Shown here piece after piece: positions 3,419 through 58,563 of a DNA stretch of 64,000 bases. This stretch comes from Octopus vulgaris (Eukaryota). The stretch spans positions 63,240,001-63,304,000 of the forward strand of contig OX597820.1 of the NCBI GenBank assembly GCA_951406725.2, given 5' to 3'. The notes under the pieces are model-generated. The model made no database searches and had not been told where the DNA came from. It was given only the letters and a program-made list of their open reading frames with translations. The translations under genes and the position numbers were made by a program. The stretch's first letter is position 1. Each line of letters opens with the position of its first letter.

Positions 3419-3737
3419 TGGTAAAACGGTAAGATAACAAAAGAAAGAAAGAGACCTCAATATTATGTAAATAGAGGAAATTTATCTATACAAAAATATG
3501 TTACATTACTCGATAGTCAAGATAAAACTCTGAGTTTCAGGTGCCGAAGTAGGAATCCACGACATCTCTTCGGTTATTTGGCTATTTGAAAACTCTATGA
3601 AAAGATACCGTTATATATGAGATAACGGTATTTTTTCATAGCGTTTTCAAATAGCCAGATAACCGAAGAAATGTCGTGGATTCCCACTTCGGCATCTGAA
3701 ACTCAGAGTTTTATCTTGACTATCGAGTAATGTAACA

Positions 3738-3744
<7 letters not shown>
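3419..3744. mobile_element. Fold-back mini-element (123-bp inverted arms, each with a hammerhead motif), likely PLE pLTR-derived, in (TA)n
   Basis: 3492-3614 is an inverted repeat of 3622-3744 with a 7-nt spacer. There is an extra ~73-nt tail at 3419-3491. The same family occurs as non-palindromic copies at 54690-55170 and 47710-47965. Confidence 0.8.
3658..3715 (+). ncRNA. Type I hammerhead ribozyme motif (mirror copy at 3521-3578, minus strand)
   Basis: gataa-CCGAAGA-aATGTCG..CGGCATct-GAAA-CT-cag-AG-TT-ttatc: stem I gataa/ttatc, stem III ACT/AGT, predicted GUU cleavage. The relative at 54795-54856 has the canonical CTGAAGA core. Confidence 0.7.
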
Positions 3745-3794
<50 letters not shown>

Positions 3795-22946: not shown

Positions 22947-22976
<30 letters not shown>

Positions 22977-22980
<4 letters not shown>

Positions 22981-24598
22981 TGTTATATTTCGGAATGGTC
23001 ATATTGCCAGTTTAGCCAATAAAAACACACGCACTATATATTTGGTGTTATTTTGCTTCAGTGATATTTATTTTTTACATTAATCTTAATCTTATTTCGG
23101 CCAAAGTTCTTTCGTCACACTCCTGTGACCGCATCAGTGGTCCTTTGTTTTCTTCTCACCTACTTGTGTCTCTCCTTACTAACCGTCAGCCATTTTGTAT
23201 TTCTATTGTATGTCTTCATTTGCGCATGCTTATATCTCTATGTGCGTCTATGTTTATTTAGTGTGTGTGTGGGGGGATGCCTGTAATATTTGTATCTTCT
23301 GGTTATATACATTCTTATAATTTGTATTTTGTTTTTGTTGTTGTTGCTTTTGTTCTAATTTTGTTCATGTGTTTACATCCACCCATTATTATCATTACAT
23401 ATGCTTGTATGTATGTATAACAACAATATTAGTAATAATAATAATAAATCTAATCGAAAAAAAAAAAAAAAAAAATATACATATACATATATATATATAT
23501 ACATACATATACATATACATATACATATATATACATATATACACACATATATACACATATAGATATTCATTTCTATTTCTTTAATTACCTGTGTATTTAT
23601 TATGTTTGCAGGATCCACTATTGTCATATGTTGTGGTGTGCGCTATTGCTCCATTCTAGTTTTCTATTCAGGCTAGGTTTATTTTCTATTATATGTGTAG
23701 CTTCTGTAATTTGTCTAATTGTTGCATCTGTTCTATGTGTGGACAATATCTTAATCTCTATGTTATTGATTGATCCCCCGTGTTCTTGTTCGGCGTGTTG
23801 GTACAGAATCGATGAGCTTTTACCTTCCTTGAGTTGTCTCCAATGTTCATTCACCCGCTCACCAATGCTTCTTGCAGTTTCCCCTACGTATGTTACTGTC
23901 TTGTTACTGCATCGTCCCTCTATACATCTTATACTATAGACCACATTTCTGGCTTTACAGTTCGTTTGTGGGCTAAATCTACATACAGTGCAATAGTTAT
24001 CCGTACAGAGAGTTCTACTAAAAGGATAGCTTCTACCAATTATAGATCTGATAGGGTTGCCTGGCTTTTCAACAACCTTAATTCTTAGTTTAAGTTTATC
24101 TAGGGTCCTTCTAAAGCGGTACGCTAGTTCACCTCCAGGGGTGGTGTCAACGAACATGACACTCTGGTATTTATGGCTATCATACCAAGAGTTGGCCTTC
24201 CCTATTTTCTTTTTTGTCCTTTCTATAGTGTTCCATGACTTGTTCCTATAGAGTGGGCAAATCCCATTCCTATCATTACATAATATATTATCAAATTTCT
24301 TCATGGCTCCTTTGTATACTCTGATCCTTTCTTTATGGCTGTAACCTGAGAACTGCATGCGGTGAATGAAATACTGTATGTGTCTCTTTAATTCTGTAGG
24401 CTCGCACATGCGTGACACATTTCTCATTATTCTGACGAGGTCTGCCATCAAAATATTGAATTTGGCATTGCCCGCAATGGCTGAGTTCCGGTGGATCAGG
24501 TATTTTGAGGCCATAGGTTTTGCATAGTATGAATGAAGGATTTGGGTTTTATTTTTCACAATTTCTAGCCAGAGTTCAGTGTCTAGTACTGGTAGTCT
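22977..24598 (-). repeat. Left inverted repeat (inverted pLTR): copy of RT thumb, GIY-YIG and 3' UTR
   Basis: ORF 23624-24559(-) is the C-terminal ~310 aa of the main ORF. The inner junction ggtagtct|cg at 24598 mirrors agactacc at 27358. Confidence 0.95.
23099..23143 (-). ncRNA. Second copy of the PLE hammerhead motif (left inverted repeat)
   Basis: Exact reverse complement of 28813-28857. Confidence 0.7.
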
Positions 24599-27500
24599 CG
24601 TCCAGGATATGTATCAACAAGGTCACAGCCAACGTTAAACGGCTTGACCTCACTAACGGACAAGCGGAAAGACTAAAAAGGACGCTAATGGTAAATATTA
24701 GAAATAGAATATACAGAGAGCTGAGCGAACAAGAGAAGCGTAAACGTATATTTTTAAAAGAAATTAAAAGTATCACCACACGAAAGGAGAAAACCTTAAT
24801 AATGGATATAATATATGAAGAAAACAGACATGTAATACACCAATGCAATATCCATTTTAAGAGGAAGTTATCGTGGTTGAAACAGAAACGTCAATATGAG
24901 CTCGCAAAGGAAGAAAAGCAGAAGTATCCAGATACAATAAATGGAATTATTATGGAAGATGTGCTACTACCAGAAGAGTTCAATAAAGACAATGAAGCGA
25001 ACATCTATGGGGGAGTAACAACGGACCCAGATGAAATATCGATACTTCAACTACCACCAAAGTATGCAGTGTATAGTAAAGTGAATACCATCAAATGCCT
25101 GTCCGAGATTGAAAAGTCGTTCACAAAAATACGTTGGAATTTAAATAGATACTATGACAACAACACTTGCGACAACAACAACAACGCGAAAAACACTAAC
25201 CGCAGCAACAACAACACAAACAATAATGAACGCAACAATAACAACCGTAGCAACAAAAGCAACACGAACCCTAACAGCGGCAACAACAACAACAACACGA
25301 ACCCTAACAGCGACAACAACAATAACAATAGAAAAAATGTATGCATAGACACAAACAATAGATACAAAAACAAAAACACAAACAGAGAGAGAAAAATCGT
25401 ATACAACAGCAACAACAACAACAATTATAGGGAGAACCGACACACAAACACACACACAGATAGCCATAGTCACAAAGACACGAATAAAAGTTGTGTCATA
25501 GGGGTCACGATGGAGAATAAAGTTGAATGCAACAGGATCCTTGGACAGGGAGTCAGCGGACTTGAAACAGATAACAATACTCATAGGAACAAAAATAACG
25601 ACCGCAACAGGGGGATTGACAGGGACCAACAGACAGACATAAAACCCAACACTAATATAAACAACACATATACCAGAAACAGGAACAATGAATATATCAC
25701 TAGCGATGATAGTAATAATGGCAATGGTAGGAATAAAGGTAATAACAATAATAGTGGTAGTAGTAGTGGTGATGGTAACAGTAGAAGTAGTAATGAGGAT
25801 AGTAGTGATAGTTGTGGTGGTAATAGGAATACTAGTAGTAGTAGTAGTGGTAATGGTGATAATAATAATAGGAAGGCTGATGTTGGAAACAGTAACGATA
25901 ATGAAGATAACCCTAGAGAGACCATTGACATGTATACCCATCCCTTTGACACTCAATTCTTCAACGTATGCGACAAAACTTACTGCATGAACCGAATTTA
26001 TCCAACAACATTACCCTTCAACAAAAGAGTATACATCCCAAGACGTACTAATGACCACATGGAAGCACAGTTCACTATAGCTAGGACCAAACTTAGACAG
26101 ATTATAGGATTATACATTAAGAGACAGAGACAGAATAAGACAGATGCCCAACAACTAGGGATTAAACCTGCATGTGGCCTACAGAAGCTCATTCAGCGCA
26201 CGAGGAACGGAGAGGTGATATGCCTTCCCACGGATAAGTCCGGCAGGATGTCAATAGACAGCTTACCGAACTACATCCAGGCAATGCAACCTCATATCGC
26301 CAATACAAAAGTAACAACTGTACAGGCGCATGAGGAGAGAGAAAAGGTCCTCAATGCCCACATGATGATGTGGACAATTGTTCTGGGACCTCAGAAACGT
26401 ACTGCAAAGAATTTCCAAGCCTGGAACAATGATATCCCGGCACTGTATGGACTTCGCAAGGACCATAAAGGTTTTACTGACCCTATAGCAGGACCACCAA
26501 CAAGACCAGTCTGTGGAGCGAATATCGCTAGCAATTACATAATCTCCTACTTCCTCTCAATGATCATACGCCCTATAATCAGGATGTCACCTGATGTGTG
26601 TGACAGCACAGAAGATCTCCTAAGCAGGATCAGTGACTGTAACAAAACTTGTGACTTGACAGGATGTATAGTAGGTAGCATGGATGTGGTATCCCTATAC
26701 CCATCGATTGACGTAGATTTTGCAGTGGAGAAGTGCGTGGAGATGATCAACGAGAGCCAGGTGGAGTTCTGTAATGTCGACACAGAAGAACTGGGCCTCC
26801 TACTTAGACTGACATATAATAGTGAATACTTAGATAAACATAATCTTAGTAGTTTCTGCCCCAGTAGATGTTTAAGAGGTAGACCGCCTACAATTACTTC
26901 TATGGCTAGGAAGACACATATAGAAAGATGGCGCGGATGGACCAGAGCCATACGGAGCCCCGCAAATGTCCATCAGGTAAAGAAAATGATCGCACATGCA
27001 CTAGGAGCTAGTATAAGAGTTACCCTAAAAGACCACACATTTAAATTTAATAATAAAATATATGCCCAGGACGAGGGGGCAGCCATCGGTGTTAGTATCG
27101 CTGGTGATGTGGCCAACCTCTTCATGGTATGGTGGGGCAGAAGGCTTAAAGAATGCCTACTGCAGAAATCCATACTCGTAAACATGTACTCTCGCTATGT
27201 TGATGATATCAATATAGTAGTAAAGGCACCCCCACAAGAGAGTACTGTTGATATAGTAATAGAAACTAATACTATGGAGAGCATCCAGCAAATAGCTAAC
27301 TCCATCCACCAGAGTATTAAGGTCACAATAGACTACCCCACTAAACACCCCAACCATAGACTACCAGTACTAGACACTGAACTCTGGCTAGAAATTGTGC
27401 AAAATAAAACCCAAATCCTTCATTCATACTATGCAAAACCTATGGCCTCAAAATACCTGATCCACCGGAACCTAGCCATTGCGGGCAATGCCAAATTCAA

Positions 27501-28332
27501 TATTTTGATGGCAGACCTCGTCAGAATAATGAGAAATGTGTCACGCATGTGCGAGCCTACAGAATTAAAGAGACACATACAGTATTTCATTCACCGCATG
27601 CAGTTCTCAGGTTACAGCCATAAAGAAAGGATCAGAGTATACAAAGGAGCCATGAAGAAATTTGATAATATATTATGTAATGATAGGAATGGGATTTGCC
27701 CACTCTATAGGAACAAGTCATGGAACACTATAGAAAGGACAAAAAAGAAAATAGGGAAGGCCAACTCTTGGTATGATAGCCATAAATACCAGAGTGTCAT
27801 GTTCGTTGACACCACCCCTGGAGGTGAACTAGCGTACCGCTTTAGAAGGACCCTAGATAAACTTAAACTAAGAATTAAGGTTGTTGAAAAGCCAGGCAAC
27901 CCTATCAGATCTATAATTGGTAGAAGCTATCCTTTTAGTAGAACTCTCTGTACGGATAACTATTGCACTGTATGTAGATTTAGCCCACAAACGAACTGTA
28001 AAGCCAGAAATGTGGTCTATAGTATAAGATGTATAGAGGGACGATGCAGTAACAAGACAGTAACATACGTAGGGGAAACTGCAAGAAGCATTGGTGAGCG
28101 GGTGAATGAACATTGGAGACAACTCAAGGAAGGTAAAAGCTCATCGATTCTGTACCAACACGCCGAACAAGAACACGGGGGATCAATCAATAACATAGAG
28201 ATTAAGATATTGTCCACACATAGAACAGATGCAACAATTAGACAAATTACAGAAGCTACACATATAATAGAAAATAAACCTAGCCTGAATAGAAAACTAG
28301 AATGGAGCAATAGCGCACACCACAACATATGA
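24520..28332 (+). CDS. PLE reverse transcriptase / GIY-YIG endonuclease polyprotein (uninterrupted; first ~26 codons derive from the antisense inverted repeat)
   Basis: RT motifs: PTDKSG, LYGLRKDHK..RPV, MDVVSLYPSI, QDEGAAIG, RYVDD (27196-27207), VLDT. These are followed by a thumb region (YAKPMAS..SGY), a CxxxxCxxC knuckle, and GIY-YIG NVVY..YVGET..ER..EH..H..E..LN. There is a long insertion between motifs A and B'. No internal stops. Confidence 0.95.
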   Translation: MHSMNEGFGFYFSQFLARVQCLVLVVSSRICINKVTANVKRLDLTNGQAERLKRTLMVNIRNRIYRELSEQEKRKRIFLKEIKSITTRKEKTLIMDIIYEENRHVIHQCNIHFKRKLSWLKQKRQYELAKEEKQKYPDTINGIIMEDVLLPEEFNKDNEANIYGGVTTDPDEISILQLPPKYAVYSKVNTIKCLSEIEKSFTKIRWNLNRYYDNNTCDNNNNAKNTNRSNNNTNNNERNNNNRSNKSNTNPNSGNNNNNTNPNSDNNNNNRKNVCIDTNNRYKNKNTNRERKIVYNSNNNNNYRENRHTNTHTDSHSHKDTNKSCVIGVTMENKVECNRILGQGVSGLETDNNTHRNKNNDRNRGIDRDQQTDIKPNTNINNTYTRNRNNEYITSDDSNNGNGRNKGNNNNSGSSSGDGNSRSSNEDSSDSCGGNRNTSSSSSGNGDNNNRKADVGNSNDNEDNPRETIDMYTHPFDTQFFNVCDKTYCMNRIYPTTLPFNKRVYIPRRTNDHMEAQFTIARTKLRQIIGLYIKRQRQNKTDAQQLGIKPACGLQKLIQRTRNGEVICLPTDKSGRMSIDSLPNYIQAMQPHIANTKVTTVQAHEEREKVLNAHMMMWTIVLGPQKRTAKNFQAWNNDIPALYGLRKDHKGFTDPIAGPPTRPVCGANIASNYIISYFLSMIIRPIIRMSPDVCDSTEDLLSRISDCNKTCDLTGCIVGSMDVVSLYPSIDVDFAVEKCVEMINESQVEFCNVDTEELGLLLRLTYNSEYLDKHNLSSFCPSRCLRGRPPTITSMARKTHIERWRGWTRAIRSPANVHQVKKMIAHALGASIRVTLKDHTFKFNNKIYAQDEGAAIGVSIAGDVANLFMVWWGRRLKECLLQKSILVNMYSRYVDDINIVVKAPPQESTVDIVIETNTMESIQQIANSIHQSIKVTIDYPTKHPNHRLPVLDTELWLEIVQNKTQILHSYYAKPMASKYLIHRNLAIAGNAKFNILMADLVRIMRNVSRMCEPTELKRHIQYFIHRMQFSGYSHKERIRVYKGAMKKFDNILCNDRNGICPLYRNKSWNTIERTKKKIGKANSWYDSHKYQSVMFVDTTPGGELAYRFRRTLDKLKLRIKVVEKPGNPIRSIIGRSYPFSRTLCTDNYCTVCRFSPQTNCKARNVVYSIRCIEGRCSNKTVTYVGETARSIGERVNEHWRQLKEGKSSSILYQHAEQEHGGSINNIEIKILSTHRTDATIRQITEATHIIENKPSLNRKLEWSNSAHHNI

Positions 28333-28979
28333 CAATAGTGGATCCTGCAAACATAATAAATACACAGGTAATTAAAGAAATAGAAATGAATATCTATATG
28401 TGTATATATGTGTGTATATATGTATATATATGTATATGTATATGTATATGTATGTATATATATATATATGTATATGTATATTCTTTTTTTTTTTTTTTTC
28501 GATTAGATTTATTATTATTATTACTAATATTGTTGTTATACATACATACAAGCATATGTAATGATAATAATGGGTGGATGTAAACACATGAACAAAATTA
28601 GAACAAAAGCAACAACAACAAAAACAAAATACAAATTACAAGAATGTATATAACCAGAAGATACAAATATTACAGGCATCCCCCCACACACACACTAAAT
28701 AAACATAGACGCACATAGAGATATAAGCATGCGCAAATGAAGACATACAATAGAAATACAAAATGGCTGACGGTTAGTAAGGAGAGACACAAGTAAGTGA
28801 GAAGAAAACAAAGGACCACTGATGCGGTCACAGGAGTGTGACGAAAGAACTTTGGCCGAAATAAGATTAAGATTAATGTAAAAAATAAATATCACTGAAG
28901 CAAAATAACACCAAATATATAGTGCGTGTGTTTTTATTGGCTAAACTGGCAATATGACCATTCCGAAATATAACAATAT
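27358..28979 (+). repeat. Right arm of the 1622-bp inverted repeat (3' pLTR)
   Basis: Mirror of 22977-24598; paired coordinates sum to 51956 at both ends. Confidence 0.95.
28813..28857 (+). ncRNA. Minimal type I hammerhead ribozyme motif in PLE 3' pLTR (variant core)
   Basis: ggacca-CTGATGC-G-GTCACA-ggag-TGTGAC-GAAA-GAAC-TT-tggcc: stem I cca/tgg, 6-bp stem II, vestigial stem III. HHRs are an established feature of PLE pLTRs. Confidence 0.7.
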
Positions 28980-29032
28980 CTGTTTCAACACACGACTTCA
29001 CATAAAAAATCTTGCACAACAAATATTTAAAC

Positions 29033-29087
<55 letters not shown>

Positions 29088-29263
29088 CACATATATCTGC
29101 TGACAAGGCTTTGGTCGGTCCGAGGCTATAGCAGAAGACATGTGCCCAAGTAATCCTGCAGTGGGACTGAACCTGGAACCATGTGGTTGGGAATCAAGCT
29201 TCTTACCACTGCCAATCCAGCACTATATATATATATATATATATACTTACATACAGACACAAC

Positions 29264-33589: not shown

Positions 33590-34108
33590 CCTTCTGATCT
33601 TAACTGAGTGGACATGTTATGTACATCTTTTGTCTTGGTATAAAAGATAAGCTACAGTAAATATTCTGGTCAATAGCACAGATCTATTTGTTGGTTGTTT
33701 GACCGTAAAATTGAGAAGGTCCTTTGGTGATTGGGGATATGTGCACCATTGATTACGAGCACAAGTTGTGGGTGGAATATCATAGCCATATTATAAAAGG
33801 AATTCTTTAGTGTTTGAATTATTCACCTCTGGAAACATGTGTGTTTCTTTCATCAACCTTAAGTAAACCTTATTCAGGGACCTTTTAAGCGGAATGGGCT
33901 ACTCCACATGAAGAAAATACTAACTGGGCCCCACCTGTAAGTTCAAGCGCTCTTTATCTTGATATAAAATTACCATGTCGCGCACATGTCGGTGTGATGC
34001 ATGTGTGGTGTACCCTTATCAGACTGGTAGTCATGATGGATATATCGGGCGTCGTATAATTGTACTGCAAAATCGAATGTCATTATGGCATGTGCTGCTC
34101 TTTCACTA
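33590..34108 (+). mobile_element. Third, diverged copy of the (AAT)n-associated repeat
   Basis: Reverse-complement match to 36886-37405. Confidence 0.75.
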
Positions 34109-34467: not shown

Positions 34468-35229
34468 GATTACATCAACCCAAGTATTTCACTGCTACTT
34501 AATCTATTGACCACGAAAGGATGAAAGGTAAAGTCAACCTTGGGGAATTTGAATTCAAAACGTAGACACTGGTGAAATACCGACAAGCATTTCCAGCGTG
34601 CTAACAATTCTACCAGCTCACTGACTTAATAATGATGATGATAATAAGTGTAACAGCAAAAACGACATCAGCATCAACAACAGCTACAGCCACAAAATAA
34701 AATTTGGTTACTTGTATTTCAGATTGTATATGCGAGTATTTTCAGCTACTTATTAAAACATTCAAATGGTGAAACTTCTATAATTTCCTCATAATCAAAT
34801 TGCATTATTTGAGATTGCTTGTCAAAAGAAAAATGCAAACACAAAAATTAAATTACGATCAAATATTAGTTTCTTTTCGCATTTGACGTGCATTGTACAA
34901 CGTACAGAAGCAAACAGACATGCTGGGAGAGTGAGCAATGAACCTGCAGGCATATAAGTAAGTGCATAGATTTATTTTTCACGATATGGTTTTAACATAT
35001 ATGCCCACATACATACATAGAAACACCGGTGCAGGCACAGCACACACATTTTTGTGTGTAGATGTGCATATACATGCTTGTATATGCGTGTTTATATGTA
35101 TATAAGCAAACACACACGTACACACATATGCATATATACTATATACTCTCACGGATGCATACATATATATATAATCAAACACACACGTACACACAGATGC
35201 ATATATACTATATACTCTCACGGATACAT

Positions 35230-35308
<79 letters not shown>

Positions 35309-36885: not shown

Positions 36886-37477
36886 GAGTGAGCGAGCAGA
36901 GCATGCCATCAAAGTGACACTGGGGTAAAATATACGAAGCCCAGTATACCCATCATGACTACCCGTCTGATAAGGGTACACCAGGCACATGCATCACAAC
37001 CATATGTGCAAACATGGTGATCTCATATCAAGATAAACAGCACATGACCTTGCAGGTGGAGCCCAGTTAGAATTTTCTTCAGATCGAGTAACCCATCCCG
37101 CTCAAAAGGTCCCTGAATAAGGGTTGTTTAAGGACGTTGAACGAAACACCTATGTTTCCAGAGGTGAATTATTCAAACCCCAAAGAATCCTTCTCAACAC
37201 ATGGCTATGATGCTCCCCCACTACTTCTGCTCGTGATCAGTGATGCACATATCGTCAGCCACTAAGGTACATGCTCAACTGGTTAAGGTCAAACAACTGA
37301 CAAGCAAATCTGAGGTATTGAGCAGAATATTTGCTGTAGCCCATCTTTTATACCAAGACAAAACAATGTACATCATAACACTTCCAATCAGTTAAGATCA
37401 GAAGCCATGAGAGCCACTGCCTGGTACTGCATCATGGCATTTATGTACTGCATCAGGGCATGGTACTGCATCAGGGC

Positions 37478-56681: not shown

Positions 56682-58563
56682 TTTCCTTGACCTTCGACCC
56701 AACCCCCACACCCATTGGTCTGGCCGAACTTGTCCTCTCACTCAACTACTTCTCATTCGCAGGTGATTTTTACCCGGAAGTCTCGGGAGTGGCCATGGTA
56801 ACGAGAATGGGCCCCCAACTATTCGAACCTGTTCGTTGGCTACGTTGAGGCCCAAATATTCTCAAGTTTCAGTGGTTCCACTCCCGAACTATACGACCGT
56901 TATATTGACGACTTAATTGGTGCGACCTCACTCTCCCTCCAACATCTAGACTCCTTTTTCTCTTTTGTCAAATCTTTCTATCCTGCCCTCCACTTCTCCT
57001 GTACTATCTCTGACACCTCTGTCTCCTTTCTTGACATATCGTTCAGCATTTATCACTCCATTCTCACCAGCTCCATACACTACAAACACACAGACTCACA
57101 CTCATACCCCACCTTCTCCTCCTCCCACCCTAAACACACCAAGCTTTCGATCCCCTATTCCCAATTTCTCCGTCTACGCAGACTCTGTAGTGACGACCAT
57201 GACTTTGTGACTCAGACTGAACTTATGGCTTGCTACTTCATCCTACGTGGATACTCCTCACCACTATCCACACTCCCTTGCTAGAGTACGTTCCGTGGTT
57301 CGTGCATCTGCTCTCTCACCCCGCCCCCGCCCCGCCATCACCCATCACCCGTTTCCCCTCACCTACCACCCCACGACCCTACCTCACCAACGCACTATTC
57401 TCCGAGCTTTCCAGCGACTCCAGTCTTATCCCTCCACTTCACACATCTTCCCTAACCGAGCCCTCCCCTCCTTCAAACGAGCTCACGACCTACGTGACCT
57501 CTTGCACGTTCCCCTGCTGCCGCCCACGCTGCCGCCCACATTGCCGCCCACGCTGCCGCCCACGCTGCCGCCCACGCTGCCGCCCACGCTGCCGCCCACG
57601 CTGCCGCCCACGCTGCCGCCCACGCTGCCGCCCACGCTGCCGCCCACGCTGCCGCACTTACCTCTGCAAAACCACTCTACTCACCGGCACTCATCATCGA
57701 TCCTATCACATCACCGACTCCTTCACCTGCACTTCTATCAATATCATCTACTGCATCTTCTGCACTCTCTGCCTTTCTCTATACATCGGGCAAACGGGAC
57801 GCCGCTTCGATGCCCGGTTCGCGAAACACCCGAGACATCCGACGCGGCTATGACATCCTCTCCTCTCTTGTTCCGACTCCTACTTCTCTTCACTCCCACT
57901 CTCCTCCTCGCTTCTCTTCACTCCTACCCACCTTCTCCATTTCCTCTTCATCGTCACCCATCACTCGTAAACCTTACACAGTCAACCCCATCTTCCCTAT
58001 CCACCCACCACATCCCTAATGTCCACTCCCACATATCCCACCTCTAGCCCCCAACCTTGCTTTCCCACTCTCGCCTCTCCCAACCCCCAACACCACCATA
58101 CCACAGCACACCAAACACCACTACACCATACACCATCATACTGCACAATACTACATGACATCAAATCACATCATTACGCAAAGACTAGCACTTACCACTT
58201 CGCAAACCCACATCCGAACACGTACACATACACACACGCACGCGTCAAGGTCACTAGCCCTCTTCTACACGCACATAATGTTCTCTTATACACACACACG
58301 GGTACCTTCATTTTGGGCTCACCACTACTTTATTATCTCCCCTTTCTCCTAGCTCTCCTACTCGGTATTCACCATGATAGATCGCTAGCCACTATACATT
58401 CTTTATTTTCTCTGCTTGTTCCTTTCTGCGTTCATTTCTGTGGACGTGCATAGGCTCGAAAGGTTGAAGACATTTTCACTTCCCCAACATTAAACTAATG
58501 CATATGTTTGTTGTCTCCAGCACCTGTTTTCGTCTTTTTGTTTTTTGTGAATTCTCCCTATAT
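56682..58563 (+). mobile_element. Decayed Penelope-like element (Poseidon/Neptune-like RT + GIY-YIG) with 3' pLTR
   Basis: Frameshifted motifs LAELVLSLNYFSF, GVAM.TRMGP, RYIDD, FLDI, HYKHTDSHSY, CCRPRC, IIYCIFCTLC..LYIGQTGR. The 3' region has an HHR motif at 58433-58470 and ends GAATTCTCCC-(TA)n. Confidence 0.85.
57516..57655 (+). repeat. 12-bp tandem repeat (GCTGCCGCCCAC) x ~11.7 inside the PLE zinc knuckle
   Basis: Directly visible; translates to (CRPR)n in the frame of the GIY-YIG region. Confidence 0.95.

Follow-up and report, generated by a model that had tools for sequence, protein, structure and literature searches.

The 64-kb stretch analysed here (the window; Octopus vulgaris, GenBank assembly GCA_951406725.2, contig OX597820.1, positions 63,240,001 to 63,304,000 of the forward strand) contains a Penelope-like element (PLE) at positions 22977-29033. 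We read it, with a probability of roughly two in three, as a 5'-truncated, stop-free copy of a young octopus PLE with a C-terminal endonuclease, which likely belongs to an unnamed lineage and whose insertion into a TA repeat likely started at both nicked strands, with a single source supplying the RNA. An inverted-repeat scan of the window, which holds no N, revealed two arms at 22977-24598 and 27358-28979, each 1622 nt long, 2759 nt apart and differing by 6 mismatches without gaps (99.63% identity). This is far above chance, the second-longest inverted repeat of the window being 208 nt with 82%. The element is bordered by (TA)n on both sides, on the left at 22947-22980, where the final bases overlap the tail-less end of the inverted arm, and on the right at 29034-29096. 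At one outer end only, 54 nt (28980-29033, forward strand) have no mirror counterpart and form a tail. A target-site duplication cannot be read within (TA)n. The arms with about 6 mismatches, the 2759-nt core, the flanks, the unmirrored tail and an open frame with reverse transcriptase (RT) and GIY-YIG endonuclease had been described in an earlier note made from the sequence alone, and all of them were reproduced.

The left arm (22977-24598, reverse strand) is an inverted, 5'-truncated copy consisting of thumb, endonuclease and 3' untranslated region (UTR)/pseudo-long terminal repeat (pLTR), without the 54-nt tail. It meets the main copy (24595-29033, forward strand) head to head at 24595-24598, where 4 nt of microhomology are common to both arms. 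The main copy begins at position 107 of the 4588-nt unit (reference unit: the sibling copy L031). It thus has neither the direct pLTR upstream nor the start codon, and 106 nt at the front of the body and 62 N-terminal codons are missing. The frame is free of stops from 24517 to 28332 (forward strand, 1271 aa stop to stop), with its first 78 nt inside the inverted arm and its first Met at 24688 within the core; the remnant of the open reading frame (ORF) belonging to the main copy spans 24595-28332 (1245 codons, counted by hand). For this copy "ORF-intact" means stop-free only, as it is 5'-truncated.

Several features follow each other on the forward strand of the main copy, their motif coordinates taken by eye from sequence and translation. 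An Asn/Ser-rich low-complexity linker in the N-terminal half of the ORF (25150-25925), where relatives show unrelated low-complexity sequence, precedes a telomerase-like RT from the DK motif through the thumb (26233-27660), where motif A lies at 26680, B' at about 27080 and the catalytic motif C at 27196. Motifs A and B' are separated by a conserved insert of about 70 residues (26767-27015), at the IFD position (IFD: insertion in fingers domain). The C-terminal GIY-YIG endonuclease (27946-28329), compared with Figs S2 and S7 of PMC8557442, possesses a short CX2-5CxxC linker and a CCHH motif. The 3' UTR/pLTR carries a type I hammerhead-like motif (28813-28857), recognised by pattern only and with putative cleavage, whose mirror copy lies at 23099-23143 on the reverse strand. 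It also holds the start codon of the family ORF (28954-28956), which is used only where a pLTR precedes the body.

Reverse transcriptase and endonuclease

A Pfam scan of the whole ORF returned no family, and pieces of the ORF gave RVT_1 (E=0.0013) and GIY-YIG (E=0.00054), both below the curated cut-off. The predicted RT model, made with 66 aligned relatives, reached a predicted local distance difference test (pLDDT) of 94.7, and its best matches were telomerase RTs (TERTs), which took the top 4 Foldseek and the top 11 VIA rows (best TERT match: Z 16.9, root-mean-square deviation 3.9, 281 aligned). Atlas neighbours of the model carry PLE-type Pfam families. As modelled, the RT is closest to telomerase RT, as expected of a PLE; this fold, the GIY-YIG domain in the same ORF and the pLTR/inverted layout with a one-sided tail bear out the Penelope-like identity. 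In the endonuclease the GIY, YIG, R, H, E and N positions are conserved across 18 aligned rows. A PDB sequence search with a profile of the lineage found a bacterial defence RT as best match (E=1e-5), covering motif B'-C only.

The long insertion between motifs A and B' pointed out in the earlier note is real and conserved in relatives. The A-to-B' distance is 133 in the window protein and has a median of 134 (93-139) in the 82 of 120 relatives in which both motifs were matched, compared to 61 in four proteins of Neptune type and 83-91 in 37 of Naiad type, all retrieved by motif. Counted from Fig. S1 of PMC8557442, it amounts to about 63 in Penelope, 120 in human TERT and 154 in Tetrahymena TERT. 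Of 179 proteins having motifs A and B', 171 match a profile of the insert. The insert holds conserved Cys, Pro, Arg, Trp and His and gave a pLDDT of 91.6 when folded alone; this model had no Foldseek match at E≤0.001, and its best VIA Z was 4.8, with no TERT among the 50 best rows. In telomerase the IFD has a role in processivity. The insert is IFD-positioned, and the structure search neither demonstrates nor excludes homology to the IFD.

Copy number, age and completeness of the octopus family

The genome searches were made in the window's own O. vulgaris genome (G000, 2.8 Gb). With a 1158-nt RT query the best 40 of 1344 candidates were 99–100% identical, and exact 26-mers matched 422 times in the endonuclease versus 34 times near the 5' end. 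The family comprises hundreds of near-identical copies, spread across many contigs in (TA)n. The hammerhead-like pattern of the pLTR gave 4632 genomic matches, older subfamilies included, versus 1 for the reversed control. Among named proteins the nearest one, 98% identical, carries the annotation Octopus vulgaris. Copies diverge from each other by 0.46% on average, and over 3592 unmasked sites the main copy in the window shows 7 changes absent from all the other copies sampled. With the substitution rate of PMC13282606 (0.0036 per site per million years), these private changes and likewise the difference between the arms give an age of about 0.5 million years, which leans upward as RT and assembly errors are counted in. 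The same paper counts 31 recently active Penelope-like families in O. vulgaris. The earlier note's reading of a young family is supported, with octopus as its host; the window copy as a complete element is not, since upstream pLTR, start codon and 62 codons are missing.

We examined siblings in two samples. Sample A comprises the 40 non-self rows of the RT search, corresponding to 37 insertion sites, plus the window, and is biased to long copies. For sample B we went through the first 100 listed of the 422 endonuclease matches by contig order and took 40 sites, passing over those present in A and one site of excessive length with three matches. A direct pLTR precedes the body in 16 distinct siblings of sample A (hand count, overlap of L029 and L030 removed). 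The family ORF begins with an ATG inside this preceding pLTR and reads through the tail into the body, and a full frame of 1307–1309 aa is present in 7 of the 16, while the rest end early. The window copy shows private replacements, for example at 27137, where relatives mostly retain Asp (read from the alignment printout). It is probably not itself a source element, because the pLTR it has lost bears the start codon and also, if Penelope is a guide, the promoter; the sources of the family are likely found among the pLTR-preceded copies with full frames.

Four family copies (L187, L048, L188 and L204) are interrupted or cut by other sequence, apparently by later insertions or deletions. The O. 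vulgaris gene model P0113 ("dynein regulatory complex subunit 6-like isoform X6") includes a piece 97% identical to 19% of the element's RT-endonuclease protein, which is either an exonisation or an annotation error.

Insertion structure and mechanism

An inverted partner of at least 40 nt was found in 37 of 38 insertions of sample A and 29 of 40 of sample B (66 of 78 together); sample B contains one further copy with a very short inverted partner, and one of its solo copies abuts an assembly gap. The inverted-repeat layout of the window copy is ordinary for PLEs and corresponds to Fig. 2 of PMC8557442, supporting its description as an inverted 5'-truncated copy. Its arm had also been called unusually long, which does not hold, as the shorter side measures at least 1622 nt in 17/37 inverted insertions of sample A (median 1403 nt) and in 6/29 of sample B (median 530 nt). 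One tailed and one tail-less outer end are present in 59 of the 60 resolved inverted insertions, with 6 more unresolved. The sole exception, L194, consists of two neighbouring insertions, the main pair of which obeys this one-tail rule. Nearly all outer ends run into (TA)n, and one site is (TAA)n, in agreement with the proposed target preference. The tail is located on the shorter arm in 27 and on the longer arm in 32 of the 59 insertions. Solo copies are tailed in 9 of 10 cases in sample B, and because they are mostly tailed, the tailed site is likely the one primed first.

Compared with each other, the two arms of an insertion show 78 differences in 54,487 sites (0.14%, versus 0.46% between loci), 74 of them private. 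At 22 polymorphic sites none of 222 allele comparisons between arms was discordant, where 71.7 were expected, and the minor allele was shared in 54. This low divergence, the mostly private differences and the full concordance of alleles argue for arms that come from one source. Comparison of 37 head-to-head junctions, after removal of 4 duplicate rows, showed direct joins in 27, with microhomology of at least 2 nt in 17 (16% at random) and of at least 3 nt in 12 (5.6% at random); the window junction has 4 nt.

From these genomic scars we infer a paired priming in which each strand uses its own start site and the RNA comes from a single source. The endonuclease would nick both strands of (TA)n; one 3' end would prime cDNA at the far RNA start site and give the tailed end, and the other would prime at a site 54 nt further in and give the tail-less end. 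The two cDNAs would then stop at independent points and be joined head to head via 0–5 nt of microhomology or a short filler. As template a single transcript of a partial tandem is likely; a circle, or an RT dimer holding two transcripts from the same locus, would be alternatives. The one-tail rule and the shared alleles fit the in vitro behaviour of the Anolis Poseidon protein PAc, which nicks and extends both strands, is predicted to dimerise and starts at two internal RNA sites bounding the tail (PMC11167929), and which may be seen as an in vitro counterpart of the one-tail rule. PAc belongs to a different clade, and the consulted text of that paper gives no counts of paired ends or arm alleles in genomic insertions; it was the one relevant paper on paired priming found in our literature search.

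Several points weigh against this model. It rests on scars in genomic sequence, and the value of 0/222 overstates independence, given the linkage among the polymorphic sites and the loci that contribute more than one pair. The concordance of alleles could be increased by gene conversion or by polishing of the assembly between the arms. Fillers of 2–46 nt are present at 10 of the 37 junctions, and some insertions consist of three or more pieces, which goes beyond the detail of a simple model. Contigs of four runs stop at the junction of the window copy and continue as ordinary family, none bridging it; contigs of four runs also break at the flanking microsatellite.

A rival explanation is fold-back as put forward for rotifer Penelopes: a first cDNA, or else an antisense template, would bend back on itself and be copied. 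PMC3846280 suggests that an antisense template primes itself, and such a route accounts for the shared alleles and the junction microhomology; the window copy, having its tail on the long arm, is compatible with it. Yet a copy made by fold-back cannot contain sequence missing from its template, and in the 27 insertions mentioned above the tail is on the shorter side while the longer side is tail-less. Moreover, the truncation points of the two arms are mostly far apart and not palindromic. Fold-back is an improbable origin of these structures and as the sole route is largely refuted, but a minority of the tail-on-long-arm cases could arise in this way. Long-read chimeras can create inverted repeats, and no read or contig spanning the junction of the window copy was found. 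Still, an assembly fold-back artefact is scarcely credible given that 66 of 78 sampled insertions are inverted with fixed, differing outer ends in (TA)n, that the arms carry private substitutions and the flanks are not mirrored, and that the layout is a documented one for PLEs (PMC8557442, Fig. 2; PMC3846280).

With paired priming as the preferred model, this young high-copy family turns the open question of PLE tandem and inverted structures and of tail formation into sharp predictions: the paired ends predict two start sites 54 nt apart, one per strand, on one source RNA.

Phylogenetic position of the lineage

A protein search gave 126 relatives, and the 120 listed ones show 28–54% identity except for three octopus entries. 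A profile search of 1.84 billion representatives gave 2861 matches at E≤1e-30, the best 150 of which were examined. Among 265 proteins examined in total, 183 possess both RT and endonuclease, and the endonuclease is C-terminal in 182 of these. The named hosts are octopus and the sea cucumber Holothuria leucospilota, most other relatives being unnamed metagenomic proteins; for one relative, the three Atlas clusters nearest to it consist of hypothetical proteins with no common Pfam family. No match to the lineage profile was found in viral contigs.

We reconstructed trees of the RT core, with the insert removed, from 32 rows (LG+G4) and 22 rows (LG+C20), drawn from 49 aligned rows, with 3 more lost at the motif cut. 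Reference rows were labelled by the motifs of PMC8557442 (for Naiad, motif and N-terminal endonuclease) and are not the paper's own sequences. In both trees the lineage forms its own long branch (98/99* with 32 rows, 98/98* with 22 rows), apart from the Naiad-, Hydra-, Neptune- and Penelope-type rows. Its stem has 1.0–1.4 changes per column, the deep order is unresolved, and the 32-row tree carries a long-branch warning. The RT lineage likely has no name yet. A search of the accessible literature found no description of it, with Repbase, Dfam and the consensus library of PMC13282606 lying outside this search and possibly holding the family under a generic name. Eight PLE clades are still listed in a 2026 preprint (10.64898/2026.07.22.740005), in the part consulted.

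A bolder proposal, which we consider evenly balanced between true and false, is that the element represents a ninth, undescribed major PLE clade. It would be characterised by a C-terminal endonuclease with a Nematis-type linker and by a conserved, telomerase-sized insert in the RT fingers. Such a clade would occur widely among marine animals, with octopus, sea cucumber and hundreds of unnamed proteins from metagenomes, escape Pfam and still be amplifying in octopus. In at least one member the endonuclease would have shifted to the N-terminus, separately from Naiad. The insertions of the element would be family-scale evidence that the inverted structures of PLEs arise by paired priming at two RNA start sites, the RNA coming from one source. 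If this is true, an abundant PLE lineage is barely seen by profile libraries, which matters for repeat annotation in invertebrates. The lineage would also break the published pairing of the fingers insert with N-terminal-endonuclease PLEs (apart from sporadic Coprina exceptions), and the distribution of the insert would bear on the kinship of PLE and telomerase RTs.

With endonuclease-containing PLEs in general (Penelope/Poseidon, Neptune, Nematis; described in the consulted parts of PMC8557442 and PMC3846280) the family shares the single ORF with telomerase-like RT and C-terminal GIY-YIG, the partial tandems of pLTRs and the ORF start in the pLTR running through the tail. Also shared are the inverted 5'-truncated copy, the tail at one end, the hammerhead-like motif and the AT-rich target. 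In contrast to them it has about 70 extra residues between motifs A and B', the sequence DKS and a different motif B', a tail of 54 nt (30–40 in theirs) and a unit of about 4.6 kb. Rotifer Penelopes likewise start their ORF in the pLTR and show an inverted pLTR, a one-sided tail and Asn-rich in-frame inserts (PMC3846280). In the Asn-rich Penelopes of Adineta vaga (same paper), with ORFs of about 1300 aa, these long inserts are located between RT and endonuclease or between RT and thumb, whereas in the window family they are N-terminal to the RT.

The strongest alternative for the position of the lineage, which we hold to be possible though somewhat against the odds, is a divergent branch within Neptune or Nematis which acquired the insert and would already be listed in Repbase or Dfam as a generic Penelope. 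Motif A is similar to the Neptune, Athena and Coprina rows in Fig. S1 of PMC8557442. Nematis shares the C-terminal endonuclease, the short CX2-5CxxC linker and CCHH (Figs S2 and S7 of PMC8557442), and Neptune shares the C-terminal endonuclease, CX2-5CxxC and CCHH, microsatellite targeting, a similar motif A and the best pairwise similarity. BLASTP to a Neptune-type protein gives E=8e-11 with 23% identity over 399 columns, which counts against a lineage of its own. Neptune is described as paraphyletic and IFD-like regions as sporadic in Coprina (PMC8557442), and the 31 active families already counted in O. vulgaris may include this one. Our trees also limit the claim of a separate lineage, as they hold no Nematis, Athena, Coprina, Chlamys or TERT rows and only 2 Neptune-type rows, too few for a paraphyletic group; the lineage lies outside these two. 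On the other side, the printed Neptune, Nematis, Athena and Coprina rows (Figs S1 and S7) have a short A-B' spacing and a different motif B'. Short A-B' regions are seen in three printed Nematis rows of Fig. S7, which have a canonical motif B' too, and in two of Fig. S1; the window protein has 133. Neptune has DKG, an A-B' distance of about 61 without IFD, a canonical motif B' and a longer linker spacer (Figs S1, S2 and S7). The long stem branch lies outside the Neptune-type and Penelope-type rows, and six motifs of the lineage were not found in the supplement text of PMC8557442, where gapped aligned rows could hide them.

Penelope/Poseidon elements have DKG and no zinc-finger linker before the endonuclease, whereas the window element has a linker and a separate branch. 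Athena and Coprina are telomeric and lack an endonuclease; the window family has one, and its copies are dispersed in (TA)n. Hydra-clade elements share the C-terminal endonuclease, an RW dipeptide in an N-terminal motif, DK followed by T/S, (TA)n and a hammerhead or hammerhead-like motif; they differ by lacking CCHH and the insert, by a CxCX5C linker and by a length below 3 kb (window unit 4588 nt), and they are the most distant group in both trees.

The earlier note had suggested the Naiad clade for the element, a placement we now consider very improbable. In the definition of Craig et al. 2021 (PMC8557442, in the parts consulted), Naiad elements carry their endonuclease at the N-terminus and have CxC, DKA and an IFD of about 20 residues. 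The insert at the IFD position, the (TA)n target and the presence of CX2-5CxxC plus CCHH in the endonuclease speak for this assignment, and Naiad/Chlamys elements share the insert position, the (TA)n preference, inverted structures and a tail. A tree grouping the lineage with Naiad is not rejected (approximately unbiased test, p-AU 0.09), but this leaves only a sister relation for Naiad. The C-terminal endonuclease was taken as a hint to Naiad, which reverses the argument: it is C-terminal in the window element and in 182 of 183 relatives and N-terminal in all 8 Naiad-type proteins long enough. The window element has DKS (26233) instead of DKA, and CxC is absent upstream of the RT (by eye in the translation and the 5' extension of the family). 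Motifs A and B' are unlike those of Naiad, and the insert has about 70 instead of about 20–25 residues (about 20–40 for Naiad/Chlamys, which also have no canonical hammerhead). BLASTP to a Naiad-type protein gives a best E of 0.037, and the Naiad-type rows form a separate starred branch, so that the RT falls outside of them.

One relative, P0266 (1517 aa, from one ENA contig), possesses an N-terminal endonuclease as in Naiad. This single sequence combines an RT of the lineage with GIY-YIG at residues 51-173 and none after the thumb. P0266 may have had its domains permuted independently of Naiad, or it may come from reading through a partial tandem.

The Naiad-type pattern had no match in the window's genome or in viral contigs, the Neptune-type pattern none in viral contigs, and a Hydra fragment search gave no matches. 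Hydra-type PLE families do occur in the window's genome, with 713 pattern matches (for example L176 at C1:57209152-57212180, and C1:57210652-57220780); open frames reach 709 aa, and head-to-tail arrays close with an inverted copy. The same genome harbours an older, mostly broken Penelope/Poseidon-type family (L061-L070, 113 pattern matches). Neptune- and Hydra-type PLE sequences were also present in contigs filed under bacterial bins (L147-L167 and L178-L181), which are most likely DNA of animal hosts.

Hammerhead-like motif, editing and neighbouring sequence

The motif at 28813-28857 contains the hammerhead core, stem II and GAAA. The young family has C at core position 9. Among 100 listed genomic matches 11 have the canonical A, often accompanied by a variant loop, and most have C, which suggests that the amplifying subfamily may have a weakened ribozyme. 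An Rfam scan gave no hammerhead match at E≤5, only simple-repeat miRNA noise, and the folding energy (z about -1.4) gives no support by itself. Because some Naiads have such hammerhead cores as well, the motif carries little weight for assigning the clade.

A read-through transcript would pair the two arms, as would be the case for most siblings. A role as substrate for ADAR or small interfering RNA, as put forward in the earlier note, is possible in principle and gained no support. No host exon was recognised in the window: 113 of the 126 listed frames of at least 70 aa outside the element gave no Pfam match, a search which short exons would escape. No RNA run was listed as holding the window stretch in a sequencing-run search. 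The genomic copies show no excess of A-to-G, with rare A>G changes at 0.50 per kb of A and T>C at 0.52 per kb of T in 187 genomic segments, copies being picked by near identity, so that heavily edited ones would escape sampling.

Elsewhere in the window there are an inverted repeat of 135 nt at 3480-3756 (93% complementary, loop of 7 nt) and the 208-nt inverted pair at 33771-33978 and 37012-37219 (82% complementary, spacing 3033 nt). In addition, a 69-nt tandem duplication lies at 35094-35242 and a GC-rich tandem array of a 12-nt unit at 57516-57655 (11.7 copies, 96%).

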